This document shows positions 17,017 through 59,319 of a stretch of 64,000 nucleotides of DNA, piece after piece. Below the pieces are notes generated by a model. That model saw only the letters and a list, made by a program, of their open reading frames with translations, ran no database searches and had not been told where the DNA came from. A program made the position numbers and the translations under genes. The stretch is from Eledone cirrhosa (taxonomy: Eukaryota), in the NCBI GenBank assembly GCA_964016885.1, contig OZ024740.1:362328001-362392000 (forward strand), written 5' to 3'. Within the stretch, counting starts at the first letter, position 1. Every line of letters starts with the position of its first letter.

Positions 17017-19759
17017 AATATATATATGTATGTATATATATATACCAATTTGTTACTTTTGGCATTGAAAGGGAGCTCATAAAAAAAAAAGGGAGTACAT
17101 TCTGTTAATCTGTAAATTATATTAAGAGATCAGAAATGGATGATTATAATAGCAAGTATTATAATCATCCATTTGTAACTTCAATTGTGAATGGAAAATA
17201 TAAAACTTATATCAAATACAAATAAAAGATAGACATTTTCAAGCAACATTGAAACAACTACTACAAGTCACATATATAAATGATCCATTGTGAACCACTT
17301 ATAATTTATAATGGTTGCTTTATAAAAGGGTCTCATATAGCTACAAGAAGTAGGATATCCTCAATTATATGAGTTTCAAGAGCTTCAAGAACTAATTATA
17401 GCTTTACTATAATTAGCCGACATAAGCCTGACGGTGAAAGTATACTAACCTTGTTTTGATTCATGCATGTCAATAAAGAGGATAAATTGTCTTGATGATA
17501 TTGTTAGTATATTTTCTATTGAATATTGACAAAGGGAAATTGAAACACTTGTCATTCATGTCAACAGCTGTTGTAGTTGTTTAGCCCCAGGTCAAGCCTG
17601 ATTGAGCAGACCTATGATCCAAGATCAATTATGACCACCTCAACTGTTTGACACTCTCTATGACAATGTAACTTTCTCATTTTTGAGCTGATGCTTGGAG
17701 CATAGCTTAACAAAGGCTCTTACATAAAATTATGGTGGAAGATATTTAAATAAATATATACAGCTTTGTGTCACAGAACCAGGAAATTTGATAACAAAAG
17801 GGTTAAGGTTGTGTAGGATTACATTATCTAACAGGTCTTACTTTAGCATGTGATCTACTCAATATCCCTAGTCTCCACTGTGTAATGACCTAACCTATCA
17901 GATTTGTTTGTGATATTTGTTTGACCTGATCTGTCACTTTTTCTGGCATTCCTAATTGATATACAAAGAGTATATTGTTAAATGATTTAATGTAAATTGT
18001 TGATTTTGAAGATTAAGAGTATGCAATTAATAATAAATCATTATTCAATATTATTTAACTTGTTTTTTATCATCTCACAGAATAACGTTTTATTGTTGAG
18101 GTGGACTACATACTGAGCTGTAAATATGCAGGTAGACTTAATGCTGAACTGTAAATATCCTGGTAGACTGAACACTAAAGTGTAAACAACTAGGTAGTGT
18201 ATGAATTTATGTCTGTTTGTATATTTGTGTGCAAGTGAGTCTGTGAATGAGTGAGTGTGCGCGTGCATGAATGTGTGCAGTCAAGAGAAATTACTCCTCC
18301 GAACTGAAAAGCAGAATTATGTCTTTTTTTCCCCCAACAAACTTCCATTTTTGGTTTTTTTTTGTCTTTGCAGCAATCAACTTCTGGTTCCAGACCAAAA
18401 TGGCCATACTGCGATGTGCACAACTGAAGAGTGCATATGGGAAATAAATCAAATAGTTCATGCAGAGTTATAGATTGATTGGTAGGTAGGAGTTTGTATT
18501 GTAGAAATTAAAAGATAAAGGGGTTGTGGATTTGCAGTAAAAATATAAATACAATCAGAATGAAAAATAAATTATGAAATGGGATTGGGGTGTTCTATGA
18601 TCAATAATGTTACGATAAGATAGTCATAGATTAAGCCTTCACTGGAGGATGCTATCTATGCAGCCTTTACTCCAAAGAGACTATGCATATATTGGCCTCA
18701 AACTAAACCCTCTTAAACAAAATGTCTGAACTCATCCCAATGTTTAGACACAAGATATACAAGACATATCTCAACCACAAACACAATCCTTGATGATAAA
18801 ATACTTGTTACTATAATACCAAATAAAACCAACATTTATACAGCCAATACTTATAGCCCATACTGGTTTTCATACAGGGTATTAAATGCACACCCATTAT
18901 CACCAAGCAAAAGCCAACTGACTACAATGGCATCCACACGCAAGAAAGAAAACATACATCACGACATAATACACCAACTATAATGCCAACTAAGGTATAC
19001 ATAAAGATAAATGTTCTATACCACATAACTAAACACCAATTTTTAGCCTCTCCTTGAAAGAGCTAATGAAATAACACACAACCAAAAGCACACACCTTTG
19101 AAAACTACCTCATTAGGCAATGCCTACATAAGACTCACACCCATAACAACTTACACCGATAATACATATTTACTAACCTACATAAGTAATGTACCAAATA
19201 CAGAGAACACCTACCATATACAATGCCTATATAAACTTTTTCTTTCACCCATTTTTCCCTTTTTGGAAGTGGGTGGGGTGGGGGGTGTACCATCAGTAAT
19301 CAAATAATATTAGAAATCACCTAGATCCTAGATCAATCAACTAGAACAAACACACAGACACAAATACTAGCTATCTGGAGACACAATTTAGCATCACTAA
19401 CTCATAAAATACTATTTTGATTAATGACCAGACAAAACACATTATTTTACCTCCCACTCGTGCTTTCATAAAAAGTAACTCAAACTACACCATCTATATG
19501 ACTGTTTTATCATAATCTATTGACCTATCGAATATCACAATTCCATTTTATTCTTATTCTTATTTTTGTTCTGATTGCACTGTTACAATACAACTTCATA
19601 CTTGTCAATCAATGTATAACTCCATGCCTGAGGAAATAGTCATGGCTAAAGTTAACATAAACTGCTTGATTAATTTCTCATCTAACCATCAAAATGGTTT
19701 ATGCTTAACTGTGGGGCTCCCCATCCTTTAGAAAGAATGCCAGAGAATCATTACTGTTG

Positions 19760-20550
19760 GAAGCGAGAAAGTCAGATTTGGTTAATATTGACAATTGCAA
19801 AGACAAAATCCATTACAAATGAGAGAAGAAAGCTGTAAACAAGTGGATGGAAAAAAAATGCTTGGACAGTATCTGGGGGACACAGCTGAAACTGATGTGG
19901 AAAAGAGGTGGCTATGGATACACAAGAGTGATCTGAAACCAATAACAGAAGAATTGATCAGTGCCACTTAGGAGCAGACCATAAGAACAAAGTACATTAA
20001 ACTTAGTATTGACCATGCAGCAGAAAGTGACAAATTTACTGTGTGCAGAAAAAGGGGAGACTGTGTGGTACATCACAAGTCAATGCACAAAACTAGTCCC
20101 AAAATTATATAATGATTTCATGGTAATGTGGTTAGGATCATCTGCTGAGTGCTGTGCAAAAAGTACAGTCTTGTGAGGGCATGTAAATGGTACATACACA
20201 AACCAGAAGGCAGTGTGGAGAATGATTGTGTCCAAATTCTGTGGGATTTTCTGGTCCAATGTGACCATGAAATAGAACATAGAAAATCAGATATCATGGT
20301 GATAGACAAAAACTGCAAACAGCATTTTATCTATAAAATAGCCTGCTCTGCAGAAAACAAGGTTTGTGACAAAGAAAGCAAGAAAAAGGAAAGATACAAA
20401 ATGCTAGTTTGGAAGATGGTCACGGAAAAGGGTAGAAGTGATTCTGATTGTTGTGGGTGCACTAGGTACAGTCAATCAACAAACAAAGAACATTTGCAGA
20501 GGACCAGCATTACTTGGAACTGCTCGAATACTCAGAAAACTTCTTGAAAA
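19760..20550 (+). mobile_element. Old R4/RLE-type LINE C-terminal fragment
   Basis: QTIRTKYIK..C.KKGETV..ITS and ILWDFLVQCDHEIEHRKSDIMVIDK resemble the CCHC/RLE region; heavily decayed. Confidence 0.7.
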
Positions 20551-20660
20551 TTGAAGGTGTCACCTCAGTTTACAGGCTATGAACATGAACAGCTGACATC
20601 TCTATTCCATCACCAGCTTTAGGTGCTGTGAAACAACACACTACTACTACTACTAATAAT

Positions 20661-20882
20661 AATAATGGTTTCTTATATCGGCACAAAGCCAGCAATTTTG
20701 GGGGAGGAGAAAGTCGATTAAATCAACCCCAGTGTGTTACTGGTACTTTATTTTATGGACCCCGTAAGGATGAAAGGCAAAGCTACCCTTGGTGGGATTT
20801 GAACTCAGAAAATAAAGGGACGTAACTCTATGCTGCAAAGCATGACGTCCGACCCTCTACCGATACTGCCAATTCACCGTCC
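20661..20882 (-). mobile_element. tRNA-derived SINE
   Basis: Same family; includes head GGACGGTGAATTGGCAGTATCGG. Confidence 0.8.
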
Positions 20883-20939
20883 TTACCGTCCAATTAATTA
20901 CAATAATAATAAACTGAAAATATTTGGACTGAATACCTG

Positions 20940-22410
20940 TAAAGCCAATCATTGTCAACTGCTACAAAGGTAAAGGTGATGTACTAGATAGAGGAAACTA
21001 TAAAGGTATAAAGCTGATGGACCAGGTCATGAAAGTAACAGAAAGAGTTATAGCACAGTTGATTAGGGACCGGGTGAAACTAGACGAGATGCAATTTGGG
21101 TTTGTACCAGGAAGAGGCACCACTGATGCCCTCTTCCTTGTCAGGCAGTTACAGGAAAAGTACCTAGCTAAAAGTAAGCCACTCTACCTGGCATTCGTCG
21201 ATCTTGAGAAAGCCTTTGACAGAGTTCCACGTGCTGTAATCTGGTGGGCTCTTAGAAAACTAGGAGTAGATGAATGGCTTGTGAAAGCGGTACAAGCCAT
21301 GTATAGGGGAGCAGTCAGCAAAGTTAGGATTAGCAATGAGTATAGCAAGGAATTTAGCGTACAGGTTGGGGTCCACCAGGGCTCTGTTCTTAGCCCCCTC
21401 CTGTTCATCATAGTCCTGCAGGCAATAACGGAGGAGTTTAAGACCAGATGCCCATGGGAACTCCTGTATGCTGATGACCTCACACTTATAGCTGAATCTA
21501 TGGTAGTAACTAGAGAAGAAATTCCAAACTTGGAAGCAGGGACTAGAAAGAAAGGGTCTCAAAGTCAACCTGACAAAGACTAAGGTCCTTGTAAGTAGAC
21601 GAAAAAACAGAACCCAGATCCCCTCAGGGAAATGGCCTTGCTCAGTATGTAGGAAAGGTATAGGTAGGAACTCCATTCTCTGCCCCAAATGCAAACAATG
21701 GGTACACAAGAGATGTAGCGGGATCTCAGGAAGCTTAATTAAGAATGTAGGCTTCACATGCAGCAGCTGTGCTGGGACAGCAAGCAGCAAACAGCCACAG
21801 GAAACAAGTACCACCAATCTCTGGGAGGGTTCTGTAGAAACAGTAGACAGCTGCTGCTACCTAGGTGACTGAATTAGCAGCGGAGGTGGGACATGTGATG
21901 CATATGAAGGATGACAGCTGCATAAAAAGGTGTAGAGCACTAGAAGTCAATGGAAGCCACGGAGTGGGGAGACCCAAGATGACCTGGGATGAGGTGATAA
22001 AAGCCGACCTTACCCAATTATACCTCTCAAAGGCGATGACACACGACCGTGACCTCTGGCGTCACGCAGTAATACAGAGTACCCGACCTCCCATGGGTAC
22101 AAGCTGAAGCATATAGACAATATGCCCCCACACCCCCCACTGCAAGGTGGTCTTGGAGGTGCCACGGCAAAAAAGCACCCAGCCCACACTGTAAAGTGGA
22201 CGTGTAGGCACCACGAAAAAGCACCCAGCACTCACTGTAAATGAGGTTGGTGTTAGGAAGGGCATCCAGCTGTAGAAATCAAGCCAAATCAGTTCCTGTA
22301 TGAGCAAGGCATGGTCAGCCGACCAGACACTGCCCACAACAGGACAACCCGTCTAACCCATGCTAGCGTGGAAGAACGGACGTAAAACGGTGATGATGAT
22401 GATGATGATG
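20940..22410 (+). mobile_element. RTE LINE, truncated and internally deleted, with full 3' UTR
   Basis: QFGFVPGRGTTDA, FVDLEKAFDRVPR, GVHQGSVLSP, YADD; 3' UTR with repeated GCACCCAG..CACTGTAAA units and (GAT)n tail. Confidence 0.92.
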
Positions 22411-23141
22411 ACACTATCTTTGATACTTTACACAATATATCTTTAAAAATCACACATGTTTAAATATACACCTACACTCACACATATAATGCCACTAATA
22501 CACACTCTCCACTTTTCATACTAACTCGTTACTAAGACTACCTAACGGTTTGAAGTACAAGAATTATGGAATTGCAGCATTTGATTTCATCTCGCTATGT
22601 TCTGGGTTAAAATTGCTGGGGACAACTTTATTTTCAAACCAGGATAATTATTTTCATTCTTATCTGAGCTAAATTCAATTGACAATGGGGATATTTTTTA
22701 TCAGTTAGTCAAGAGAGAGGGCAATTCCTATGACTCCTTTCTAGAGCCTCAAAAACTGATGGGTGGGAAGGAAGAAAATATCTCTGATCTGGAAGCCTGG
22801 CCCAAATGCTTGCAAGTGGACCCTGCTAAAAACACTAAAGAGCCAGCTGGTGGCAGTAAACCAAGAGATGAATACAGACTCACTCAAGTAAACCCCAGCT
22901 GGATTTGAACTCAGAACACAAAGATCCAAAACAAATACCTTGAGGCAATCTGTCTGACATTCTAAGAATTCACCCTGAACTTGTGATTTATTTGTCAAAC
23001 CTAGAAAGATAAAAGGTAAATTTGGACTCTAGGATGTGAACCTAAAATATAAGGATCCCAAATAAATACCACAAGGTATTTCAGCCAATGCTCTGATGTT
23101 TCTGTCAGTTCACTGCTTTATAGGTTGTGGAACACAATAAT

Positions 23142-23329
23142 TGTTTCTACTTTTGGCACAAGGCCAGCAATTACCCAGTGCATTACTGGTACTTTATTTT
23201 ATCGACCCCGTAAGGATGAAAGGCAAAGTTAACCTCGGCGGGATTTGAACTCAGAATGGCAAGGGCCGTAACTCTATGCATCAAAGCATGGCATCCAACC
23301 CTCTACCGATACTGCCAATTCACCGCCCT
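23142..23329 (-). mobile_element. Full-length tRNA-derived SINE with 19-bp TSD
   Basis: A box TGGCAGTATCGG, B box GTTCAAATCC; direct repeat GGTTGTGGAACACAATAAT at 23123-23141 and 23330-23348. Confidence 0.9.
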
Positions 23330-23679
23330 GGTTGTGGAACACAATAATGATGACAGATTGAGGAGTGAGTGGTAGGGCATGTGGGCCTAGAAAATGAGTG
23401 TATACAAATACCTAGTTCAGAAGATCAGAAACCATTATCTATACAAATGGTATACATGAGCATCCTCAAATGTACATAACAATACAATGAAAGAATATAT
23501 TTGAAAAATTTTGACAATTTTAGAAACCGATATATTGAAATATATTATTGAATGTGTAACTACAAGCTACAAATGTTTTAAGCTAATTTCCCTGTTAAAG
23601 CAGTGTTTTAGGATCAAAGATACAATCAAGAAGATGAAGAGCTATGGGACCGTCATAGATAGTAGCTGAGATGCTAAAA

Positions 23680-23960
23680 TCATTGGGAGACGTTTTTCTT
23701 CAATTCTCTAAATATGAGAGAGTTATAGGTATCAATATCCATGCTGTACAGATTGTTTGTCTTGTCTGCATGCTCTAGTATTTCATTTGATTCCTTAAGT
23801 TCATTGAGTTTGGCTTCTAGATTTCTCAGGTCCACTGAATGTTCTTTTGAGGAATTTTCGGTTTGAAATGATTACGATCATTTCATTCTCAAACTCCTCT
23901 AGTATTTTAGTTTCTCAGGGATTCCTCCTATATTTGTTCAACTCCAGACTATTTGAATTT
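23680..23960 (-). pseudogene. Penelope-like element RT N-terminal remnant (Naiad/Neptune-like)
   Basis: Hand translation of the minus strand gives LEEFENEMIVIISNRKF and LEAKLNELKESNEILEHADKTNNLYSMDIDTYNSLI, resembling the PLE DKG/DKT motif region. Confidence 0.6.
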
Positions 23961-24378
23961 CTGTTCTGGTCCCCTCTGTCAAAATGGAAATGCTTGCCAC
24001 CACATTCTTCATATATTATATATAAGCCATCATCATCATCGTCCATTTTCCTCGCTAGCATGGGTTTTATATATATATATATATTTTTCTTGATGAATTT
24101 TTATGTATTTCATTGGTCTATTTAAAATCTGTTCCCAAACAGACCTGTAATTTTGAATTGTTGTTATTATCAATAAATATACTTCATTATTTCTGAAGAC
24201 AGCATATATATGTGTTGGTATGTATATTCTCTTTGATAGTTTGTATAATTTTGTACATAGATCTGTTGAATATGCATGCCAATTCTAACACATATATGTC
24301 CTAGAAACGATCGTTAAATAATGAACTTTTTTTGTTTAATATAAGGAACTGTTTCATTGTTTTATTCATTATTTTTTT

Positions 24379-24420
<42 letters not shown>

Positions 24421-24515
24421 TATGTGTATATGTGTTTATATATATGTGTATATGTGTTTATATATATATTTATACACACACATGCGAGGTCGTGCACGCA
24501 CACACACACACACAC

Positions 24516-24570
<55 letters not shown>

Positions 24571-24577
24571 CACACAG

Positions 24578-24611
<34 letters not shown>

Positions 24612-24614
24612 GTC

Positions 24615-28789: not shown

Positions 28790-28990
28790 ATAGGAAAAGA
28801 GTCAGGACCCCAATGGCTGAGATCTGGCAGTTTTGACAGCTAGATCCAAACTATTTGTATCTAGCTGTCAAAACAGCCGGAGCTCAGCTATCGGGGTCCT
28901 GACTCTTTTCCTATTACCCACTCTACTACGCTAAGTATTGAGTACTCTGCTGCGTTATGGTCCCCCTGGAATCTTACCACACCCTCTTTG
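28790..28990 (+). repeat. Fold-back insert with hairpin tail, in TA context
   Basis: Inverted arms 28790-28850 / 28854-28914, then ACTC..TTGAGT hairpin 28920-28943, then (TA)n. Confidence 0.8.
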
Positions 28991-29014
28991 TTATATATAT
29001 ATAATGTATACAAT

Positions 29015-34327: not shown

Positions 34328-36314
34328 TTAAAAGAGGACCCCAGGATGAGTATCAAGCCTGTCAAGAAGCCTGCTAATCTAACCCTTGCTTTAGCAGGGA
34401 AAATAGCCTTCAAACACGTTGTCCTATGTTCATTCAATCCAGTAATGAAGTACAATTTAGACTGAATCTACATCCTCTCTATATCTGGCCATTCCATTGA
34501 TTATAACTTTGCAATATATCTTCATTACATTCATTTTGAAAATTAAAATTATCATGCACCTGTTATAAGTTCAATTAATACATTCCAATGTTTAATTTTT
34601 AACATTCTGTAATGACTAAAAACAGTTTTTTTAATTCAAATGTTAATAGTATTTTTACTAATGGACATTTCATTGTGAAAATTTGCAGTATTAGATAAGA
34701 AGTTTTAACATTTAATGTGTTGCAGTCACATTAAGAGTTAAAGTAGTGGAATGTGATTTGAGGGAGATTTGACAAATAAGCTACTTGCAGTAGATCAAGT
34801 GACAATGTGTGAGCTCTTGTGTGAGCTTCATTCATCGGCTGTTGCAACTACTTAAAACTAAACTGAATCAACTGCAAAGCTACTCATCTTGCATGGCTAA
34901 TCAACCTGCTTGCAAGCAGTAAAGAAAAATGAAAGGTATCGATTGCCAGATCAGAAACAGGTGGCTAGATTTTTATTGGTCTTTCCATTGCTGATATTAT
35001 TTGTTGGTCACAATGCAACCCTTGGTAGAAGGAGGAAGGATTTTAACTCAGAATGCACAGAGCTAAATCAGATATCACAAAGTATCCTGTCTGATCCACC
35101 ACCTCTGAATAGATAAATTTGATCTTGACAAGATTGAACAAATACAGATACTCTAACAATTCTGCCAATTTGACCTGCTTGAAACAGCAGCCAAATTTCT
35201 TTCAAATCACAGCTTACTGCCTGATGGATAAACAGAAAGGACACATCAGATATTATATTCTTAGACACCCTTAAAACAACATGATGGGCATGACTAGATT
35301 ACCTCTGGTTTTTTATCTGTTCAATCAAGGCTAACATGAGCCAAAACAATAACAACTTAAATTAAAATGGATTTAGCTATTGGGATGGTGAAATCCATTT
35401 CACTAAGATCTAACATTTAATCTCATTGATATTAAATTTCAGACATCTATCTCAGAACTGTCGTCCGTTTGTCCTGTAATCAATTTAACCATCTACACCA
35501 TTACTTTCCTCATTACACAACAATATTTACAGCAGAAACACTATATTTAGCTTTGAAACCAGGACTTTTAAACATGTTTTCCATTATGCCACCATAGCAA
35601 CATCCATGTCATTTGCACAATTATACATTCTTATTTCCAACTGTCAACTAAATATCAGGGGACTTTAGTTGTTCTCGGAAGATGACTATATATTTACATA
35701 TACAGATATACATAAATACACATTTGCATATATCAAAATAATATTACAAAAACAATTATAACACATGGACTGTTATCATGAAACCTGCCTATTGTATTGA
35801 CATCTCATACGTCATCAATGACATGAAACATATGTATCAATGTATCAAATAGCTTACATGGCTATTGAGTACTTAAGTTCAATATACTTGTCAATATTAT
35901 TTACAGCCTAAAAGTACTTCTAACAGAGGATTAAAATATTTTATCTGTTATAGCATTTATATGTTAGGCCCCAAAGCTAATTAACTTGTCATGCATGTTT
36001 TGCTAAAAGATATAAAGGACAATATATATGTAACAACATTGCAAAACAGATATACAAAGAAAGATACACACACGTGATAGATACATAAAAACATATACAC
36101 ACACTCACACATTTATATGTATATATATGTGTGTATATATGTTTTTGTGTATGTATATATGTCTCTTTATAATATAACATACTCTACTACCCCAAGTATC
36201 GACTACTCTGTTAAGTAATGGTCTAATCAGTTTTAAACTGAATCCAACCAGATTTATATATATATATCATCATCATCGTTTAAGGTCCATCTTCCACGCT
36301 AGCATGGGCTAGAT

Positions 36315-38276: not shown

Positions 38277-38306
<30 letters not shown>

Positions 38307-38308
<2 letters not shown>

Positions 38309-38534
38309 CAATATGTTGAAAAGGTAACACATCAGAGAGAGAGATAACCTTTCATAGGTTATAGATTCCATACACTGGTGGGTTTTTCCCTGTTTTATTG
38401 ATAACACACTGTATATCTCTCTCTCTGGTGTGTTACCTTTTCAACATATTGTATTTTAAAGAGCTCAGGATCTCTTCTCCTTTGAGCACATTATTTACAG
38501 GGAATAGCGAGGGCCTATGCCTCCGTTAATTTAT

Positions 38535-38540
<6 letters not shown>
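38307..38540 (+). repeat. Fold-back insert with hairpin tail between TA tracts
   Basis: Arms 38307-38346 / 38414-38453; GCTCA..TGAGC hairpin 38463-38487. Confidence 0.75.
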
Positions 38541-38576: not shown

Positions 38577-38635
38577 GTTAAACGATGATGATGATATACA
38601 TATATATAAGATTTTCGCTCTACATGACTGAATAC

Positions 38636-38879
38636 AATAAATGTAATCTGAGTTTTTGAATGGTTTCCAATTATGCAAACAGCCTCTTTTTTAAAGCCAT
38701 GTCAGTAGAATTAGCCCCTCATTCTTGCTCTTGTGTTGGGAATTCTGTTTACATGCCAACACAGGAGCAAGAATGAGGGGCTCATTCTACTGACATGGCT
38801 TTAAAAAGAGGCTGTTTGCATAATTGCAAACAAATTGAATATTATTATTAATATTAAAAAAACTCACAGTACATTTATT
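38636..38879. repeat. Fold-back palindrome between TA tracts
   Basis: Arms 38668-38739 / 38756-38826 plus weaker outer arms. Confidence 0.8.
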
Positions 38880-38881
38880 AT

Positions 38882-38948
<67 letters not shown>

Positions 38949-38956
<8 letters not shown>

Positions 38957-39339
38957 TAAGAGGAATTCCAACTTTGTCTGATTTACTCGTTTTATTTACA
39001 ATCCTTTAAAATTTATAATGGTATTATAATGAAATAGTATGATAGAATATTAAATTCTAAGTGTTAATTGAACAAGTACTTCCATGCTTTCGCAATCTTC
39101 AGGTTCATAATATGTGGTGACAGTCAAGTTTGCAATTTTCAACAGTTGAAAATTGCAAACTTGACTGTCACCACATATCATGAACCTGAAGATTGCGAAA
39201 GCATGGAAGTACTTGTTCAATTAACACTTAGAATTTAATATTCTATCATACTATTTCATTATAATACCATTATAAATTTTAAAGGATTGTAAATAAAACG
39301 AGTAAATGAGACAAAGTTGGAATTCCTCTTATTAATATA
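38949..39339. repeat. Near-perfect 391-bp palindrome carrying mirrored HHRs
   Basis: Symmetric about 39144; 195-bp arms with only about 2 mismatches seen; TA tracts on both sides. Confidence 0.9.
39181..39219 (+). ncRNA. Minimal hammerhead-like motif, GGAA variant (mirror copy 39069-39107, - strand)
   Basis: TGAAC-CTGAAGA-T TGC gaaa GCA T-GGAA-GTAC-TT-GTTCA. Confidence 0.65.
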
Positions 39340-39381
39340 ATCTTCTATACACAATCATACACACCCGTGTATATTTACCTA

Positions 39382-39413
<32 letters not shown>

Positions 39414-39418
<5 letters not shown>

Positions 39419-39850
39419 TTCGTATTTCCAAAGAAATACGGTTTTAGGAAGCTGTAGCTATCCAAACACCGGGGGGGGGGGGTCTAACGCCCTTTGGTAG
39501 TGTCCAGCAGAAGCAAGGGGGATAACCGTCTATGCATTTCAAACTTGACTTGCCATCATCAGGACGATCCCACCCACTGCTCGCGACTGTTGGACTTGAA
39601 AACAGCTGAGAATATATAGTTTTCTCGTCTGTGTAAATGAGGTGATTAATCTCATTTGCATATGAAGATGCATAAGTTGGCACAACTTATAATAGAAAAG
39701 AAATAAGATTTCGCTTCAAGCATAACTTTATACAATATGTATAAAAATTTCGTGTTTCTAAAGAAATACGGTTTTAGGAAGCCGTAGCTATGCAAACACC
39801 GGTGGGCTAATGCCCTCTGGTGGAGTCCAGCAGAAGCAAGGGGGACAACC
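39414..39850 (-). mobile_element. HHR-containing repeat, family A, 1.3 tandem units (330-bp period)
   Basis: AAATTTCG at 39415 recurs at 39745; homologous to 16206-16514. Confidence 0.8.
39525..39568 (-). ncRNA. Type I minimal hammerhead ribozyme
   Basis: ATCGTC-CTGATGA-TGGC aagtcaa GTTT-GAAA-TGCA-TA-GACGGT; canonical core, weak helix II. Confidence 0.75.
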
Positions 39851-41126: not shown

Positions 41127-41900
41127 TCACTTAGGTTTTTATCAACAATTGGAGTTCATCAGATTGTTGCCTTTAAGGAAGAGAATTATCTATGATTTCA
41201 CCACCTTCTCAAATATCTTAATTATATGAGAAATGAGTGAGATCAGACGGTAATTCACTACAAGGGAATTGTTTCCCTTTTTGAAAACTGGTACGACAGA
41301 CTGGGACAGAAAAATTTTCAGGGATATAGTCAGTGTCCAGTGAGTTCTTCCACGGATTAGGTAGAAGAGATGCAAATTGGTGTTGACACACATTCAGGAC
41401 ACTAGCAGGGAACCTATTGGGGCCAACTGCTGAGTTGTATTTAATTTTGTTTATTGCCGCTAAGACATCAGGGGCACCAAACGTTATGTCAGATATAGTG
41501 TGTTGGGAATTAACATCACTGATACAGCCAGATCAGCCATATCAGAATTGCTGAAAACAGAGCAGTATTGTTTCTGCAGTGTCTCTCCCATGGTTTTAGC
41601 ATTGTCTTGGAGAGTGCCATTTTCATAAATCAGAGAGCCAACAGTGGATTCAGTGACCTTGTGTTCTTTTGCAAATGAAAAGAAGGCTTTAGGGCTGAGT
41701 TTGATTTTCTCAAAGGCCCATTCTTCCTCAGCTGTTCTTTGGTTATTGATAATGGTTTACATGCACTTTTGGAGATTATGTTTTTCGTTTTGAACAGAGC
41801 AATAGCTGTTGAATGTGTGTGTTGCTGTTGGCAGTATTTTAGTTTGTTGATTTTTTTATTTTTCTGATAATAGTTTTTCTCTTTTCAATTATTTATCCTC
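41120..41900 (-). mobile_element. CR1/Jockey-group LINE fragment
   Basis: VVPVFKKGNNSLVVNYRLISLISHIIKIFEKVV is an RT domain 1-2 motif. Confidence 0.75.
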
Positions 41901-41947
41901 ACTACATGATATATTGAGTGCCTTAATTGACTATGGCCACCCTTCTG

Positions 41948-42028: not shown

Positions 42029-42029
42029 T

Positions 42030-44749: not shown

Positions 44750-44786
<37 letters not shown>

Positions 44787-44816
44787 AGATCAAAAGATGG
44801 TTAAAAGAGTTCCATG

Positions 44817-44862
44817 TATTTTATTATGCGCATTTCAAAAACAAATATCATCAGATAAAATA
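44817..44862 (-). ncRNA. Minimal hammerhead motif with unpaired domain II
   Basis: TATTTTAT-CTGATGA-tatttgttttt-GAAA-TGCGCA-TA-ATAAAATA; in a short insert between TA tracts. Confidence 0.7.
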
Positions 44863-45143
44863 GGGAGACATGATATGAAGCTTAAAAAACACTTGCAAGC
44901 AGTGAAGTGTTAAATCAACATATATATATATATATATATATCATATTATATTATATCATATTATATATATATAAGGAAGAGATTGAAAATGCAACTGGAG
45001 TCTTTAAGAATATTTATTTATTTATTTTACATGTGGGTCATCTTTTTATTTAAAAAAAACACATTTTCCTATATATATATATATATATATATAGGAGGAG
45101 GTTATAGTTTACTTGAAGCATTGTGTAATGAGGTATAAACGTT

Positions 45144-45424
45144 TGAATATGTATAATAAAGCCAAAACAATGCAGGTATGGACATAGAAAAAAGAATGAA
45201 ATTGCAAAAGATATTGTTGACAAATCGTCTTTTACCTTAGATTTATTTAAATGTCCTTAATTTTCGAGATAATATCTCTTCTTCAGAGGGAAATAAAGGT
45301 CTCAAACCAGCGTTCTAAATATCTTGCCAAGCCATGCTGACGATTTGTCAACAATATCTTTTGCAATTTCATTCTTTTTTCTATGTCCATACCTGCATTG
45401 TTTTGGCTTTATTATACATATTCA
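45144..45424. repeat. 86-bp inverted repeat enclosing an HHR-like motif
   Basis: Arms 45144-45229 / 45339-45424; TA tracts on both sides of the insert. Confidence 0.85.
45254..45290 (-). ncRNA. Possible minimal hammerhead motif
   Basis: CCT-CTGAAGA-a GAGAT att ATCTC-GAAA-AT-TA-AGG; short helix I and one extra A before helix II. Confidence 0.45.
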
Positions 45425-48369: not shown

Positions 48370-51300
48370 AGAAATTAATTCATGTATAAATATCTCTCTC
48401 GCTGAACGTATTAAAATGACAATGTTTAATAAAAAAAAAAAATAATAAAAAAAAAAAAAAAAAAAGAAGAAGTAATGAAATATTACGTGTTATTGACGAA
48501 ATAGGGGATGAATATTTACGACGGATAAAAACCCCAACATGTTGGCAAATCAACTCCTGTTTATATGCCTTAGCAACGACAGTAAAGCATTATCTTGGTG
48601 ATAGCAGAGATATTAACAAGAACAGAACACCACCAAAAATACCATCATATATAATTAAAATAGGAAAAAAGATTGCTGACTTACGAAAAACGATAGGATA
48701 TGTGACAATGCTCCTTACATGCAAACAAACACAAAAAAACCTCCCTCCTCACCAACAAAGAGTGAAAAATAAAATAGAGACGATGTTTGGTAACAGTAGA
48801 ACCAGAACTCTTCAATATAAGCTGAGCACCCTCAAACAAGAATTGAGAGCTGTTAGAAAAAAATATGAAGAACAAAATAATAAGTGTTACTGAGGCCTCA
48901 TCCCAGAAAGACATAGATTCCTTTTGGAGCAAAATATGGGGTGAAAAGAAGAATTTCAACCAAGATACAGTGGGGCTAAGAGAAATCCGAAAGAACTATT
49001 GCTCCTACACTACAACAAAAACATACAAAATAAGTGAGGGTACCCTTGAGACTGTGATAGGAAAACACCAGGAAGAGACATGATTGTCAGCTACTGGTAC
49101 AAAAAACTGATATTCTATCAGAGGTATCTTACTGACCTCTACCAACAAGTTCTTAAGGGAGATACACTTATACCAGAATGGTTAACATTAGCACAAACAT
49201 TACTGGTGCCCAAGAACAAAGACACCAACTTGGCAAAATCTACCGACCCATTGCATGCCAGAACATGATGTATAAGATGTATACAGCCTGCCTGAATCTA
49301 TTCACTGTGAAAATAATAACATCATCACAGATGAACAAGCAGCTGGAAAGAAAGGGTTTGGGGATGTGCTGAGCAACTCCCAATCAACAAAACTGCTATG
49401 TCAGAGGTGCAATAGCTTAGGGGAATATGGCTACAGTATGGCTGGACTACAGGAAAGCTTTCGATTCTGTTCCCCACTCTCGGATGATAGAGGCCCTCCA
49501 ACTTGCTAAAGTCCCAGACATTATTGTCAGAGCCATAGAGAGGCTGTCTTCTTCTTGGGCTACTATCCTAAGGTTAAAGACAGAGGGAGAGGACTCTATT
49601 TTCACTGATAAAATAAAATATTGCAGGGGTATTTTTCAGGGGTACAGTCTCTCTGTGATATTGTTCATCTTGTCATTAAACCCCTTGTCCTTTCTGCTCA
49701 AGAAATGTGAGGGATACATCATTGGCTCACAGGAGGACAGAAATACGAACCTAACCCATAATTTATTTGTGGACGATCTGAAACTCTATGCCAAGAACAT
49801 GGATGGGATGAAGAAAAATTTTGACCTGGTTACAATGTTCTCAAAGGATATAGGAATGGAGTTTGGCCAAGATAAATGCTCATACATGACTGTAAAGCGA
49901 GGGAAAACAACAACCCAATCTAGCAACATTGTCATCAATGGCCTAACTGTTTCACCAATATCTGATGAGGACTGCTACAGATACCTGGGGATAGATGAGA
50001 ACATATCCTATAATGGTATCTGTAATAAAGAACACGTAACCAGGAAATACTACACCCGATTAAGAAAGATCTGGTCATCGGAACTCTCTGCGTAAAACAA
50101 AACAGTGGCTTACAGTGTGTTTGCTGTGCCTGTCCTAACACTAGCGTTTGGAATACTCAATTGGACGATAAACAAAATCCGAGTAGTTGATGTTGGAACT
50201 CTAAAAATACTAAACAACACCGGAAACTTCCACATCAACAGTGACATAGACCACCTTTACTTGAAACAAGCAGAGAGGCAGAGGCCTAACATCAGTCCAG
50301 ACAAGATTTGAATGTCGCATCATATCTCTCCGACAACATCTACGAACCTCGAAGCGTAGGAGCCCGTTTCTCGAGCAAGTCTATCTGCATAAGATCATGA
50401 GAGTTGGGAAGGAACTCCTCGAGAGATATTCCCTGTGTGATAATCAAAAACTCACACCCAGCAGTATTGCAGTGAATCCATGGATGAAAAACTGCATGCT
50501 TATCAGCAAAAAATCATGCATGGATATGTTGCCAGGAAGCTCCAGAGTGAGAGTAATATAGATAAGGAAAGTAGTCTATCTTGGACCAACAACCGCTATA
50601 TTGGCTCCCACTTTGAAGGATACGCTTTTGCAATTCAAGAACAGGAGATTAACACGAAATGCCTGATTCACAAAAGAGATATGGATGCAGGCAAAACACC
50701 TAGATGTGATAACAAGTGCAGACTCTGCAGAACTAATATCGAGGATATCACCCATGTCATCAGCAGCTGTCCAAAGATGTCATCGCGGTACTATCTACCT
50801 ATGAGGCATGATGTAGTGGCCAAAACACTGTGCAATGAAGTTCGTAAAAAAGATAGCCCCGATAATAAACACATTAAAAGCTACAGCAATGTGAAAGACA
50901 TCCATGTACATAATATGAAAGAGTACTGGTGGAATGTTCCAGTAAAAACCCCAATAAAATGCAGGCATAACAGACCAGATATTATGATATGGGACAGGGA
51001 GAAGAAAACATGCACAGTAGTGGAAATTAGCTGCCCAGCAGATGCCAATATAATATCAAAGATTAGCGGAAAGGAGAATATTTATGCAGAACTGATGAGA
51101 AATCTGCAAATTCTCCACCCTGATTACACCTTTAGATTTATGCCTGTGATTATTGGGGCACTGGGATATGTTAGTAACTGCCTCAATACAAATCTTGAGA
51201 AGCTTGGCTTCACAGGAACAGAAAGAACACAACTAGCTAGGAAATTACAAGTACAATCCATTAATGCAACAGTAAAAATATGTAAAACATTCCAAAAATG

Positions 51301-51538
51301 TTGCATCTAATAACTGCATATAAACATGTACAGATACAAAGCATATACACATGCACACATACAACTCAAAACATCCACATCCACACATACAATAACATCC
51401 ATATCTACACATGCATGCATACATACATACCTACCTAGTTGATGTTGTGTAAATTCCAATGAGAGAGTCATGTGTCTATGTTAGAAACCGACTCTCTCTT
51501 TATTGGGAAAAAATTTGTGAAATTATAAAACCAGAAGA

Positions 51539-51540
<2 letters not shown>
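48370..51540 (+). mobile_element. R4/Dong-clade LINE, copy 2 (longer, frameshifted)
   Basis: YRPIACQN, WLDYRKAFDSVPH, FVDDLKLY, CCHC, RPDIMI..EISCP; 3' end abuts (CATA)n; 5' boundary approximate. Confidence 0.9.
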
Positions 51541-51572
<32 letters not shown>

Positions 51573-52959
51573 GTGTATTAGGCTTCCGCAGGTCCTGTCT
51601 ACCAAATTCCATTCACAAGGTAAACCCAAAGCTATAGCAAAAAAAAAAACACTTCCATAGTGAGATTGAACCTAGAACCCTGTTGTTGTGAAGTGAACGC
51701 CTTAACCACAGATATATGTGTATATATTTTCTCAAATAGATTGTTTTTATGCCCAGCATGACCACAGTCTAATATACATTTTTTTTTTCTTCTTCATCCA
51801 CGTATTCCTGGGAGGGTCGTGCAGACACACTCCTTAAGCACGAATTCCAATAAGCCCTGTCAATTTTTCCGGCTGGATCCCGAGGCTCTAAAAACGCCTA
51901 GACTTCAAGGATTTGAAAAAAGTATGAAATTGATAACACCAAAGCACTACAATATGACCAGAAACAATAATACACAACATATTTCTGCAATTTCTGTCTA
52001 CCAAATTTCACTTACAAGGCTATAGGAGAAAACGCTTTCCTAAGTTACCCACAGTGGGACTAAACCCAGAGCCACATGGTTGCAATTTGAACTCTTTAAC
52101 CACACTGTGATGTCTGCACCTTATATACTTATAGCTATCTATACTTATATTGTGCTGGCGTCATGATAAAATCCATCCAATACACTCTGTAAATTGTTAG
52201 TGCTAATGTCATGATGAAATGCACCCAGTCCACTCTGTAAAGGGGTTGGTGTTAGGAAGGATACGAAACTGTAGAAATCGTGCCAAAATGGAATACATGA
52301 GTAAGACAACCTGTCCAACCCATGACATCATGAAAAATCGAAATATGTTGATGATAAAATATGTTTAAATTGATACTTTTAAAGTCCTTTATCACCGAGG
52401 AATCAATTCTTTTGCATTCCAGAGAAATTCAAATCTGGTAAACATATGTTCAGAAAATATTACCAAATTTCTGACATAACTATTCTACTTAATTAAAGGG
52501 GAGAGGAGTAACAATATTTACCATATCATATTTTCATAGCAAATTTTGAATAATACATCTTTTGACTATTTTTTAAGTTTTAATTTTTTTGTTACCATTT
52601 TTTTAATGAAACATATTTCCTGTGATTTTCAATTAATTTTTTTAAAAATATATCTAAAAAGAATGGAGGAATTTATTAATGTAACTAACTTTCTCATAAA
52701 TAAGTTTTTGTTAAGAACATTTCTTATGAAAAGGTTCTTTCAAATAGTTATAGTGAGCATTTAGGTATAAACATGATCACTTTAAAACAACACATTTTTT
52801 AATCATAGAAATAGGGCTGTTTTCAAGCAGTTTGGTAGCAAAAGAATTACATATTTAGATGCAAATGTGAAATACTGAGGTAAATATTTCCAATTGAAAT
52901 TTAAAACAGAACATCAACAACAAAAAACACAATAATAATAATATAAATAATAATAATGA

Positions 52960-53850
52960 AAATATTGTGTACAGTGCTCAGGAGCACTACAACTCATCAA
53001 AAGTGTATGTATAGTACATAGGCTAATGTACAAACGTCAGGAAAATGAACAGAGCATGAGTCATGATATACACATGTGTGCATGTGTATGGAAGGGGGAC
53101 ATCAGGTGTAGTTTTGGCGAATTTCGGGAAGCATGAGGGTTTTAAAGGATGCAGTGTCTCGGCAGCTAACAACTGACGCAGGCAGTTTGTTCCATGCTTC
53201 AGCAACTCTAAGCATGAAAAATGTTTCTGAAAGTCATGGGAGCTGTGCTGTTTTCTGACTTTGTAGGCATGTCCACGTGTGTTAGACACATGGAAATCAA
53301 AAAAGGTGCTCAGGGTTGTTGTTGGCGAGATGGTTAATAACTTTGTGGGTGTTTACCAAGTCCATTGCCAGACGACGGAGCTTCAGTGAATCCATGCCCA
53401 GGGAAGCAAGGCATTTAGAGTATGGTAGGTGTCTGATGGCAATTTTAGAGATTTGTTTTGTCCAACACAAATCGCTGCTGAAAGTAATGCCCAGGTCACA
53501 TTCACAAGAGTACTTCTTGATATCAGTGTTGTGGAGGGAGTATGTGGACGCTGGATTTTTCCTCCCAAAATGCATGGTGCTACACTTGTCCACAGCCAGC
53601 TTCAGTTGCCAATCTGTGATCCATTGCTGCATTATGTCCAGGTCTGATTGTAGGAAAGAGTTATAGATTTCAGGATCTGTCCTTTTGATTTCAAGGTACA
53701 GCTTGATGCCATCTGCATATTTCAGTACTGTGGCATTCTTTAAGTTGGCATCTATGTCATTAATGTATGCAACAAACAAAAGGGGACCAAGAACAGATCC
53801 CTGTGGTTCACCAGATGACATCTCATATGGTGAAGAATGCTGTCCTAGAA
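52960..53850 (-). mobile_element. CR1-like LINE 3' fragment
   Basis: GEPQGSVLGPLLFVAYIND, KYADGIKL, WQLKLAVDKC, NTRGH.YK; (TTA)n tail. Confidence 0.85.
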
Positions 53851-56589
53851 CCATGAAAATAATTATTACATGGGAAATAATCTTTTCACAATAAAGTTAT
53901 GTGTAATCAAACATTAGTTTGTTTTTTTTGTGAAATATTTGTTTTTAGTGGTGCCACAATAAAATGCATCCAGTACACTCTGTAAAGGGGTTGGCATTAG
54001 GATGGGCATACAGCCAAAGAAAACTATCTGAAACATGAAACGTATGTGCAAGATGTGGTTCTTCAACCACACCAGTCTCAGACCCTGACAACCTGTCAAA
54101 CCCATAGCAACATGGAAAGTGGATGCAAAATGATAACAATGATGATGATGATAAGGATGATAATGATGATGATGATGATGATAGAGGAGGAGATGACAAT
54201 ATTTACCATGTCATATTTTTATAACAAATTGTGTATAATACATTTTTTCAAACTTCAAACATTTTACAAGTTTTAAATATTTAGACGAAAATGTGAAATA
54301 CTGAGGTTAAATAGTTCCAATTAAAATTTACAGAAGAATATATATGTATATATATTTATAGAAGAAGAAGAATGAAATTAACACCCTTACCGCTAGGCCA
54401 CATGCTTTCCAGTAAAAACTTCTTTAACACTAGCATTTGCATTACTCTATATATACTATTGTATTTTTGCGGTAAAGGCTTTATCTCACGTAATATCTGA
54501 CATAATAACGAATCTATGAGATTTTGATAATATTTATTTTGAGAACACTACCTTAACATTAGTATGAGTGGCCAATTACAGTCAGTTTGAGCAGAAAGAG
54601 GTGAGAGAATTCTGGCCTGATACGGTTGGTTCAAATGCTAAAGGGATAAACCTTATGGTACCAGCCTGGCCAAAACCTGCTCTGGTCTTCCAAAACAAAA
54701 CTATCTATTGGGTAGACAGAAGCTGTTTGGTAACCCATCAAATGAACTGTACCTGTTAAAGAAAGAACCAGCTTTGTCATGCTGAATCTCCCTGAAAATT
54801 GCATTAAGGGTACACGAGTCTATGAAATGCTCATTCACTGTTCATTTCACAAGCAGGCTGTTCCATTACTGGAACAACTAGAATGCTCTTCATCAAAACA
54901 GACGAAGGTCCATTCTGTTTCATTTGTAATACATTCACAAAAAGGTTAATAATTTTTTGGTATATTTGTTATTAGAATTTTTCAATTTACCAAATAATAA
55001 TTTCTCAGCTAATAATCAATTATCTACTGTAATAAATGTTTGCTGTTTCTCCTATACATTACATAGTTACACCACACTAGAGTAGAGAAAATAAAAAAAA
55101 AACGTTTTTTTTTAGATTCGTTGTATAAATAGCACTGTCATTTCTTTCTCTTATTTGTCTTTTTCTTTACATTTTTCTTCCCCCACCACCCCAGTTTTAT
55201 CTTAGTTTTTCATAGTTGCTAACTGTTTATGTATATTCTCTTGGCCAGACAGCTGGTAAGAAGAACAAGAAAAGGATGCTAAGAGTTAGTTAGAAAAGAA
55301 GTAGAAACGAGTAAAATATTACAATAACAGATTGTAAGCTTTAACATACCTACCTCTGCTTTCTTTACTTTGTATAACAACTAAAACTTTCTTTCACAGG
55401 AGCATATTACCAGCTAAATCTCTTAGAGTTCTGTTGATATAAACAATTTTTAGCTAAAGAAAGAATATGTGAAAGTGTGTGTATAGAAGGCGCGTGTGTA
55501 AAGAAGGAGTGTGTGTAGAAAAAGTGTATCTGCTTGTAGCACATTAGTATTATTTTTTGCACATTTAGTTAGTGCTGTGTATACAGACAAAATAAGACCA
55601 AAAAATATATATTTGAGTAGTGATGTTGATGAGGGCCCTTGTAATTTTCAGTTTATTTTGCGTGTGTATGTAATCGGGTATATGTGCAGTTATGTGGATG
55701 TGTTAGAGGGAGTATGTATGTAGTTGTGTGAGTGTGAGAGAGAAGGTATGTTTGTAGTTGTGTGTATGTGTGTTTTTATTTTCTAGAGTGTCTGTGGGGA
55801 GTTATGAGAGTATGAGTGTTTTGTGACTAAGTGTGTGTGTGAAAAAAATGAGTATGTGTGTAGTTGTGTGTTTAAGTGTTTTTATTTTCTATCTCTTAAG
55901 TGTGTTTATCTACATGTATATGTGTGATATTTAGAGTATATTATCTGCTAGTAAATGTAGCAGTATTACTTCAAGATAACATGCTTGAATAGGTGTGGTT
56001 GTGGAGAGAAGAAGCAAACGGACAGCAGAAACATAACAGCTTCCAGTGGATGTATTTGATGTAGGTACATCGAAGTAGGAATACAACTGTCTGTCAATTT
56101 AATATAAATGGAGAGATGATACACCAGCTAAGAAGTTGTGTTGTGATTTATCTGTGTCTGTATGTGTCTGTCATCACCATTATCATTTATCATCTGTCAG
56201 TATGTGTGTGTGTGTGTGTATATGTAGGTATATATGTATGCATGTAATGTATACACATAAACATGCATGCACACACTCATACATACATACATATATACAA
56301 ACATACATACATACATACACACACACATGTATATGTCTGTCATCATTATCATTCGTCATCAGTCAGTATGTGTGTGTCTATATGTATGTATATATGCACA
56401 CACACACATATACATACGTACATACATAAATACATACATACATATATATATATATGTATGTTCTATCCATGCTAGCCTGGAAGATGGCCATTAAACGATG
56501 ATGATGATGATATATATATAGAGAGAGAGAGGGATTGAAGCTTCAGTTCAACATATATGTGTGTATATATATATTTATATATATATATA

Positions 56590-57017
56590 TATACAAGGAT
56601 CGGAATTAAGAGTATTCCGCAGTTCACAGTAATAATAATAATATTAGCTCAAAGAAGAATAGAGAATTTTCTTCTGAGCTCAAATACAAATATATTACAC
56701 AAAGAGAAGTGTGTTACACAGTGAGATGTGTGTAAAGAATTATTACAAGTGAGTTTAACCGTTACTGTATGGAGAACAATATTGTTCTCCATACAGTAAC
56801 GGTGAAATTCACTTGTAATAATTCTTTACACACATCTCACTGTGTAACACACTTTGTTCTCCATACAGTAACAGTGAAATTCACTTGTAATAATTCTTTA
56901 CACACATCTCACTGTGTAACACACTTTGTTCTCCATACAGTAACGGTGAAATTCACTTGTAATAATTCTTTACACACATCTCACTGTGTAACACACTTCT
57001 CTTTGTGTAATATATTT
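56590..57017 (-). repeat. Fold-back insert with 3x72-bp tandem arm and hairpin tail
   Basis: Palindrome centre 56780/56781; right arm holds 72-bp units starting at 56782, 56854 and 56926; tail hairpins at 56601-56681. Confidence 0.85.
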
Positions 57018-57417
57018 ATATATATATATATGAAAATTCGAAATTAATGATCAGGATGGTGATGATGATATATAAATATACATCGTCATCATCATCATCA
57101 TCATCATCACTGTTTAATGTCTATTTTTCCATGCTTGCATAGGTTAGATGCATCATCCATGTTATGAGACAAGTCTGACTAGTTGGCCATGCTGTAGCTT
57201 GCTCAAACAGAACTATATTTTGACTGTGTGTTTTACAGCTGGATGCCCTTTCAAACACCAATCACGTTTACAGTGTAGAACTGGGTGGTACCTTGCGCAT
57301 AGTGGGACTGTGTTTTGGTTGGGTTTTTACAACTGCCCTTTTTAAACATGAACCACACACTTACACACATATATATATATATAGATATATGTGTATGTGT
57401 CTGTGTTTGTGTCAGTG

Positions 57418-57490
<73 letters not shown>

Positions 57491-57501
57491 GTATGTAAAT
57501 G

Positions 57502-57553
<52 letters not shown>

Positions 57554-57555
57554 TA

Positions 57556-57938
57556 CAATATATTAATAAATAGAAACTATATTTATAAAACCATAATTAT
57601 TTTATTATATATATTTCAAGGGCTACCAAGGCAGTCTTGGTGCGCTTTCATCAGATAAAATATAAGATTTGTTTTATAAATATTGACATAACCGTGGAAA
57701 AACAACCTTGACGGTTATGTCAATATTTATAAAACAAATCTTGTATTTTATCTGATGAAAGTGCACCAAGACTGCCTTAGGAGCCCTTGAAATATATATA
57801 ATAAAATAATTATGATTTTATAAATATAGTTTCCATTTATTAATATATTGAATATTTACTCCAGTAATTTGTTGAGTGCTTTATATCAGTTATAAACTTT
57901 TAAGCTTTTTGGAATCCCAACAAATTAAATATAACTTC

Positions 57939-57941
<3 letters not shown>
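57556..57941 (+). repeat. Fold-back insert (140-bp arms) with mirrored HHRs and hairpin tail
   Basis: Arms 57556-57695 / 57711-57850; tail ACTC..TTGAGT 57858-57877; TA tracts on both sides. Confidence 0.88.
57744..57808 (+). ncRNA. Type I hammerhead ribozyme (mirror copy 57598-57662, - strand)
   Basis: TATTTTAT-CTGATGA-AAG..CTT-GAAA-TATATA-TA-ATAAAATA; the mirror copy has the better helix II (AAG c GC ACCAAG actgc CTTGGT a GC c CTT). Confidence 0.85.
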
Positions 57942-57977
<36 letters not shown>

Positions 57978-59319
57978 GCATATGTATATATATATATATA
58001 TATAAAACATAGTAAGGTGAGAAAGACACATAAATATATGTGTTGGATCATGGGGGATATAAAACTACCATGGTGATGAATATATAAACTACGGATGGAA
58101 CAGTGAATACAAATTAATTAAAAGAATAAATCAAAGTGAACAAACCAACCATTATAAATATAAACACCCGGACAAAATCAAAGTAGAATTATAATGTGTG
58201 AAGAATTCCCAATACAAGTGTAGCTCTTCAGTGGATGTCCCTGAGCTTATTTTATTGTAGGGGATTATTGAGAGATTTTAACTTGACCTTTTGATATGAT
58301 ATATATATATATATATAATGTTTAATATAGAAATGGCTTCTACAGGACTATATTAAACATTGTATATACTCTACTATGTATTGAGTACCTTACTTACTGT
58401 GGTTACCCCCGATTTAACCCAGGATAGACACACACATATTTATATATACATGTATGCATAAATATATGAATACATATATATATATATATATATCCATGCT
58501 AGTGTGGAAGATAGACGTTAAACGATGATGATGATGATGATGATGATGATGATATATATATATATGTATATGTAATATATGTATGCATATATGTATGCAT
58601 ATATATATATGAAAATTTGAAAATGTGAGTGTTCCAATTGACTGTAGTAACAATTGATCACTATTGACAATTGATGAGAAAATTGAGTAAATTAACATAA
58701 GAGATGGAAAAAAAAATGGACAGCAATGCCTATGAGAAGTTGAATCCCATAGCTCTGGAAAACTGTGCGAGCACATTGACCACTATGCTATGGGGAGTTT
58801 GATACCTTTTTTGTCTTTCCCGGATGCTATAGTGATTGACTGCTATTACGGTCATTATGCACCTCCCTCTCCTTATCTTGTCATACCTCTTATACATATA
58901 ATCCCCTATACCACCTTAACTTTCCCACCTATTGACATCCCTGATTCTTACTTTCCTATCCTACCCATACCGCAGACAGACACACCCCTCACTGTACTGC
59001 CAGATATTGTTTGTTCACTCTCTCATTCAGTGGCATGTAGGTATCTGTCCATGTGCCAATATGGCCCTTCCATCTCCCTACATCACTAAGCTCCCAGTCT
59101 GTCTCCTACACACATACTTGATTTCCCTCTCCATCACTTTAGTTCAACCCTTCTAGTCCAACCATGCCAGCCTGGGAAGATGGGTGCTTCCCTTGAGGTA
59201 TCACCAGGCTACATTTCTTACCCCTTCCCTCAGCAATCAACATGCAGTGCACCACTGACCCCATCACTAACCTTATAAGCCTACCCAGCTTAGCTGAAGA
59301 AATGCACTGAATGCCGTAA

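Follow-up and report, generated by a model that had tools for sequence, protein, structure and literature searches.

Hairpin-bearing inserts between TA tracts

We analysed a stretch of 64,000 nucleotides of Eledone cirrhosa DNA (contig OZ024740.1, positions 362,328,001 to 362,392,000; hereafter the window), in which several inserts carry a small hairpin closed by RCTC and GAGY close to a TA-rich tract. The window consists of animal DNA that is rich in A+T and dense in repeats, and has 49 (TA)n tracts when adjacent ones are merged. Five inserts, here named b, d, e, f and h, have the same layout, i.e., (TA)n, an inverted arm, a direct arm, the hairpin, 48–65 nt, and (TA)n again. The left arm starts at the TA tract, the right arm stops 5–8 nt before RCTC, and TA tracts abut both ends of each insert. 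The tail is thus present on a single arm; it is about 65–90 nt long and lies outside the inverted repeat. These inserts are truncated, dead-on-arrival ends of Penelope-like elements (PLEs), most likely of the Hydra group, an assignment resting on motif and geometry because the inserts are too short for an open reading frame (ORF) and hold none.

Insert b (28790..28991, + strand) comprises two arms (28790-28850 and 28854-28914), the hairpin (28920..28943, +; ACTC/GAGT, upper stem of 4 bp, TT bulge; the arm stops at TAT, 5 nt upstream) and a tail that is followed by (TA)n at 28992-29003. Insert d (38306..38539, +) has a fold-back at 38306-38454, the hairpin at 38463..38487 (+; GCTC/GAGC, upper stem of 4 bp, TT bulge; the arm stops at TAT, 8 nt upstream) and a 52-nt tail between TA tracts. 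The hairpin of insert e (56594..57021, - strand), at 56647..56679 (-), is closed by GCTC/GAGC, has an upper stem of 7 bp and a TT bulge, and stands between a fold-back at 56684-57021 and a 53-nt tail, again between TA tracts. The tail-less arm of this insert holds three 72-nt tandem units (56782-56998) that all begin at one truncation point, possibly by repeated template jumps. Insert f (57556..57942, +) is high-copy and has arms of 148 nt, a hairpin at 57858..57877 (+; ACTC/GAGT, upper stem of 3 bp, TT bulge) and a 65-nt tail between TA tracts. The hammerhead reported for this insert (57556-57941) in the initial annotation was found on both arms as a type I minimal motif: at 57584..57664 (-) on the inverted, tail-less arm, with a TA tract 50 nt past the cleavage site, and at 57742..57822 (+) on the tailed arm, where the hairpin starts 57 nt past the cleavage site. 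No hammerhead was found in b, d, e and h, whose arms are short. Insert h (58318..58440, +), also high-copy, is made of a short fold-back, a hairpin at 58368..58386 (+; ACTC/GAGT, upper stem of 3 bp, TT bulge) and a 54-nt tail between TA tracts. The region 57556-58440 contains three unrelated inserts head to tail with a TA tract between each, i.e., one microsatellite was repeatedly used as a target.

Restriction-site-associated DNA reads over 56550-58520 reached a depth of ~15,000 at 57804-57869 versus <10 at 58002-58265. Families f and h are thus very abundant by read depth, which is not to be equated with copy number; one of the read runs (X1) may itself derive from the source of the window, and runs with small shares (X5-X20) do not enter these depths. 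In 48 contigs the sequence passes into (TA)n at 57855, immediately 5' of the family f hairpin, and the turn points of the fold-backs vary from copy to copy.

A sixth insert, c (36040..36254, +), has a low-complexity fold-back (score of 41 versus a shuffle maximum of 36), a variant hairpin at 36181..36204 (+; 3' strand GACT, TC bulge, upper stem of 4 bp) and a tail followed by (TA)n at 36255-36266. The hairpin, held out from training, matched the covariance model (CM) with 18.5 bits (E 0.07), and is a probable decayed member. All eight sites of the initial annotation were retrieved. Five are clear members (28920, 38463, 56679 on the - strand, 57858 and 58368) and 36181 is a probable one, whereas those at 17074 and 58222 gave no CM match at E ≤ 5. 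The accompanying claim of six fold-backs directly upstream of hairpins therefore holds only if 36181 is counted (five clear, one decayed). The first non-member (17075..17096, -) has an A-C mismatch and a poly-T loop, lies 29 nt from TA and 37 nt from a palindrome that is not TA-bounded, and is likely a chance match. The second (58223..58246, +) has a GCTC/GAGC closing stem and lacks the bulge, the upper stem and the fold-back; it might be the tail of a different PLE family with TA as its target. The last bases of the insert between TA tracts at 58005-58299 (+) look, by eye, like those that end octopus Naiad consensi from the literature; this insert may represent a Naiad tail that has a hairpin of its own. 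A weak CM match at 41891-41929 (+; E 1.6), with a TA tract ~35 nt downstream, is a possible decayed seventh member.

Architecture and covariation of the hairpin

The motif has the form RCTC, a variable upper stem, a bulge of 2 nt in the 3' strand, and GAGY-RC. The sequence of the upper stem is different in every insert. We compared all 12 RCTC-N-TTGAGY matches of the window: the upper stem under the TT bulge has 3–7 bp in all five sites linked to a fold-back and TA, and 0–2 bp in the other seven (Fisher p=0.0013). A scan of metagenomes for the TA-linked motif gave at least 115 loci. Among the matches listed, the upper stem had 2 bp or more in 12/12 loci with an upstream hammerhead or TA-bounded fold-back versus 19/81 without (p=3e-7), a comparison from which 22 loci with short upstream sequence were left out. 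Viral contigs, in which the pattern scan gave only chance matches and the protein scan no relative, were used as a control: an upper stem like that of the five window sites (3–7 bp) occurred in 6 of the 119 viral matches to the same TA-linked pattern, and the best CM score was 19.9 bits (80 of the 119 loci scored).

A short motif might by chance lie beside TA microsatellites, which are abundant here. The window has 35 loose RCTC..TGAGY matches, of which just 7 are near TA, and two of the eight listed sites fail, as would be expected of such matches. Yet upper stem, bulge, fold-back and spacing occur together in 5/5 linked sites versus 0/7 others, and the same motif is found at the same place in elements selected by their proteins (see below). 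Chance as a general explanation is thus negligible: it is ruled out for the five clear sites and stands for 17074.

To describe the pairing we used 28 distinct instances picked by fold-back, hammerhead or ORF position, with no criterion on the upper stem; the CM was built from 27 instances, including in its training the five clear window sites. Positions 1 to 3 of the upper stem are paired in 28/28, 26/28 and 23/25 instances, compared with shuffle means of 18.8, 14.5 and 12.5. The closing pair is AT in three instances, all of them window sites, and GC in 25, with no mismatch, in agreement with the compensatory change from ACTC/GAGT to GCTC/GAGC that had been pointed out initially. The lower stem shows an A-T/G-C swap and a T-A/A-T swap, the pairing of the latter being imposed by the search anchor. 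The bulge is TT in 24 instances, TA in three and TC in one. Both sides changed in five of the seven pairs. The covariation score, 0.302, was 0.008–0.111 in slid controls and was reached by none of 500 shuffles; in the held-out, model-aligned set 96% of the positions are paired and three pairs are compensatory. The covariation of the upper stem is therefore strong, and the element noticed initially in the DNA does behave as a conserved cis-element. We considered the RCT downstream of GAGY as the pairing partner and rejected it, because it stays ACT when the lower stem is GCAC/GTGC; in some families it is able to form a palindrome.

Hydra-clade Penelope-like elements as carriers

The hairpin-bearing mobilising element is a Hydra-clade PLE. 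[quoted passage not shown] In three loci (L142, L160 and L229) the end of the GIY-YIG ORF is followed by a hammerhead and then by the hairpin, and in another (L187) the hairpin is head to head with the RT-EN ORF.

We also gathered Hydra loci with proteins as the sole criterion and without regard to the hairpin, from animal-type contigs inside genome-collection records. Among 36 distinct ORF 3' ends selected in this way, 15 have the hairpin 40–75 nt past the hammerhead core; the distance in insert f (57 nt) is of the same kind. Ten other ends are of the TA type and stop before the hairpin point, four lack a hammerhead, three gave no data, and four are of other kinds, including one variant hairpin and one broken off midway. 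By eye, two consensi of the PMC8557442 supplement (Hydra-2_Amil and Hydra-2_Ajap) finish with a hammerhead, the hairpin and a tail, the hairpin of Hydra-1_Crog is a variant, and three published Hydra consensi stop ~30–40 nt past the hammerhead. Some Hydra PLE loci (L235-L245) and other animal-type DNA lie inside records titled bacterial, with 51 Hydra matches in one such genome, pointing to host contamination.

Other affiliations were examined. The Neptune clade, our first guess, was dropped given that the RT motif matches Hydra ORFs. The sole Poseidon-type 3' end seen complete (L167) is without the motif. Helitrons and Helentrons have either a hairpin ~10–12 nt ahead of a CTRR end or a TT target combined with subterminal inverted repeats; here the ends are 48–65 nt past the hairpin at (TA)n, and the motif is linked to RT-GIY-YIG ORFs. 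Miniature inverted-repeat transposable elements and fold-back DNA transposons have inverted repeats at both termini, whereas here one terminus is a 65–90 nt tail outside the inverted repeat. Metazoan non-LTR (long terminal repeat) retrozymes are, like these inserts, non-coding, PLE-derived and endowed with a type I hammerhead, but they are described as tandem repeats with one hammerhead per unit (bioRxiv 10.64898/2026.07.22.740005), while each insert here is one fold-back with a tail on one side only; the window has no tandem hammerhead arrays, and the 72-nt units of insert e lack a complete core. Naiad PLEs share the (TA)n preference, the inverted copies and the tails, and occur in cephalopods, but as described in PMC8557442 they have an N-terminal EN and no canonical hammerhead. 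We rejected this identity given the hammerhead in f and the C-terminal EN of the motif-linked ORFs. Published Naiad/Chlamys consensi contain six motif 9-mers, only without the 5' partner and away from the ends (6 of the 10 places), and the two complete Naiad ends available have a different hairpin.

The element class and the insertion layout are known. PLE insertions typically consist of an inverted 5'-truncated copy and a direct copy, with an optional one-sided tail (PMC8557442, PMC3846280), and Hydra-clade PLEs in particular combine a (TA)n target, a hammerhead near the 3' end, an inverted truncated copy and an optional tail (Craig et al. 2021, PMC8557442), given there as 30–40 bp rather than the ~65–90 nt found here. 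The words "hairpin" and "stem-loop" do not occur in the main text of that article. We found no description of the motif, or of its register with both ends, in the literature searched, although unread supplements, subscription papers, Repbase or Dfam could mention it. The bulged hairpin as a tandem cis-signal, described below, is apparently new. In practice, it can serve as a marker to assign ORF-less stubs to the clade. Such stubs are abundant here (six in 64 kb), and in themselves they are ordinary dead PLE remains.

Tandem hairpins, insertion ends and priming

By eye, the Hydra-1_Ajap consensus in the PMC8557442 supplement starts with two tandem hairpins, from which we predicted that the tailed end lies just before the second one. 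Two such hairpins (H1 and H2) were found in all six intact 5' untranslated regions (UTRs) (L235, L240, L242, where H1 is decayed, L244, L268 and L258), the last two of which were examined only after the prediction was on record. They are separated by 40–45 nt (about 42), and the order of the unit is ORF, 3' UTR, hammerhead, 40–63 nt, H1, about 42 nt, H2, 10–28 nt, and ATG. The hairpins of the window inserts are H1. The 3' tails of L235 and L240 consist of a copied H1 and its spacer, and enter (TA)n at TAT/TATA, 4 nt before H2. In 14 comparisons with sister copies, a tail-less end 4–8 nt before H1 was seen 11 times. Most ends are at TAT/TATA, matching the (TA)n target. Each hairpin is thus in register with one insertion end; since the tail-less end precedes H1 and the tailed end precedes H2, the tail is H1 plus the spacer up to H2. 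The hairpin appears at the 3' end of insertions because the PLE layout is permuted. Hence, the description of a 3'-terminal tail given in the initial annotation is accurate for the inserts, and not for the RNA, where the hairpin is the first of a 5' UTR pair.

The position of H2, 10–28 nt before ATG, could also suggest that the tandem hairpins serve translation or transcription, e.g., as an operator for the element's own protein, and that UA-rich stretches alone set the ends, the 5' UTR being AT-rich and TAT microhomologies therefore common. But TAT occurs throughout the UTR, and in families unrelated to one another the ends nevertheless gather within a few bases 5' of each hairpin, which makes this explanation a remote prospect.

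We consider it probable, from the arrangement of the sequences, that the RT-EN protein is recruited to each hairpin of a tandem or circular RNA and that reverse transcription is primed by nicked (TA)n annealed to the UAU immediately upstream. The GIY-YIG domain would nick (TA)n, and the freed 3' end would anneal to UAU just 5' of the protein-bound hairpin on an RNA of more than unit length (tandem or circular). The RT would then copy towards the 5' end of the RNA, usually stopping early. Both target strands would be primed, which is conceivable because (TA)n is identical on both strands. Two truncated cDNAs would be laid down head to head, one started from H1 and the other from H2, giving a fold-back with a one-sided tail. 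Previous work provides some precedent: in vitro, the RT of a Poseidon-clade PLE starts internally, at two sites flanking the tail, and both target strands are extended (PMC11167929), and circular PLE templates have been proposed (PMC4209133). The early suggestion of a signal for RT recognition or priming fits the position of the hairpin relative to both alternative ends, with action as RNA and RT binding being what the sequences lead us to infer.

The arms of insert h and of L129 bear on the number of priming events. In both, the tail-less arm extends further 5' than the tailed arm, and each arm has sequence that the other lacks, as predicted for two events. One might instead suppose that only H2, or the RNA end, primes, that the cDNA snaps back, and that the second strand halts at a roadblock at H1, leaving a tail-less arm. 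Several copies are indeed broken at or inside H1 (by eye; L240 at its 5' end, L241, L243, L129 and L264), breaks that bound protein could cause. Some fold-backs are perfect palindromes turning at stem II of the hammerhead (L175, oriented 85-170, turns exactly at the stem II loop, suggesting snap-back there in some insertions), and self-priming has been proposed for PLE inversions (PMC3846280). Still, a single snap-back cannot yield unshared sequence on each arm, long sense copies also have tail-less ends, and L237 has them on both sides. We regard this scenario as very unlikely.

The hairpins could otherwise guide the endonuclease, being recognised in an intermediate or as DNA, whether cruciform or single-stranded, with a cut a few bases upstream, so that the ends come from resolution cleavage. 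EN-mediated resolution is the most likely origin of the tail suggested in PMC8557442, and the Penelope EN of D. virilis required the tail for recognition, as recounted in PMC11167929. The ends lie at TAT/TATA, like the EN's own target, and the G-U bias expected of RNA is absent from the held-out set. Against this, the start sites of a PLE RT in vitro are the two genomic ends (PMC11167929), the asymmetric bulge and the strict polarity fit a single strand, and the TAT microhomology is what primer annealing is expected to produce. Endonuclease guidance is therefore unlikely.

A number of observations weigh against priming at protein-bound hairpins as set out above. The role of the hairpin in RT initiation is a proposal drawn from sequence, and the H2 rule is supported by two elements (2/2 checked). 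Three of the 14 sister comparisons do not fit: one sister diverges 13 nt upstream, one is tailed, and one is window insert f, misread by the script. Six protein-selected fold-backs examined by eye comprise four with mixed ends, one with both ends tail-less (L237) and one with both tailed (L241), so that having one end of each kind is not obligatory. The stretch past the hairpin is 48–65 nt in the window inserts versus 35–40 nt in most others. Since the instances belong to related families, the shuffle values overstate the significance of the covariation. The hairpins are not unusually stable (z from -0.08 to -2.3 for six members), an ordinariness that would suit a motif recognised by a protein. 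G-U outnumber A-C pairs by 7 to 0 in the first set, and the counts are 0 and 1 in the held-out set; the G-U bias is not replicated, and the acting form may be RNA or DNA. The window lacks a Hydra ORF (no tblastn match with 40 Hydra proteins), and Pfam gave no GIY-YIG among 106 of its 421 candidate ORFs. Finally, the Poseidon element starts without target homology and inside an AC-rich stem-loop, a geometry unlike that described here (PMC11167929).

That element, PAc of Anolis (Frangieh et al. 2024, PMC11167929), nonetheless resembles in behaviour what we propose: two internal starts bracket the tail, a stem-loop is involved, both target strands are cut and extended, and the protein is predicted to be dimeric. 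It differs in belonging to another clade and in starting inside the ORF at a single stem-loop, and the accessible text reports no conserved covarying tandem motif, whereas in Hydra each end has its own signal in the 5' UTR and TAT microhomology is present. More tentatively, the hairpin and its upstream UAU might form a compact telomerase-like module, in which the bulged hairpin docks the RT and the UAU anneals nicked (TA)n, and which, once duplicated, would let a dimer prime both strands. We have some doubts about this extension; if true, it would amount to a portable signal of 25 nt able to set an internal RT start in any RNA, and would explain the PLE tail and the inverted structures by one mechanism. 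PLE RTs are the sister group of telomerase, and only one PLE has been studied in vitro so far. A conserved, covarying and duplicated hairpin in register with the ends bears on how internal starts are chosen and on why insertions have an optional tail and inverted copies. It opens the question of the tail directly to mutation, and is a candidate template signal for programmable insertion at (TA)n.

Other features of the window

The window contains further fold-backs and hammerheads. A large fold-back at 38953-39383 (+), with unique arms of ~190 nt and a degenerate hammerhead, has on one side a tail of 46 nt in which the RCTC motif is absent and an AC-rich stem-loop is present; it is likely of another PLE clade. 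TA-bounded fold-backs that lack the motif and have one-sided tails of ~50 and ~28 nt are found at 45094-45424 (-) and 38609-38884 (-), respectively. At 44782-44920 (-) a hammerhead whose stem I resembles that of family f is followed by TA 43 nt on and looks like a tail-less PLE end. A third hammerhead motif, at 16630-16694 (+), precedes several short palindromes but no RCTC hairpin.

No Rfam match in the window reached the gathering score. The window contains pieces of LINEs (long interspersed nuclear elements) and of one hAT element, and the Pfam matches, in the ORFs scanned, were limited to LINE-type RT, PHD and hAT pieces. Two LINE copies (1813-4028, -, and 49357-51568, +) are 94% identical, have a restriction-like endonuclease motif and are flanked by (ACAT)n-type repeats, a possible case of microsatellite targeting. 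A third short repeat family of ~340 nt (16172-16515, 39380-39716 and 39735-39850) is TA-bounded and unrelated to the RCTC motif.

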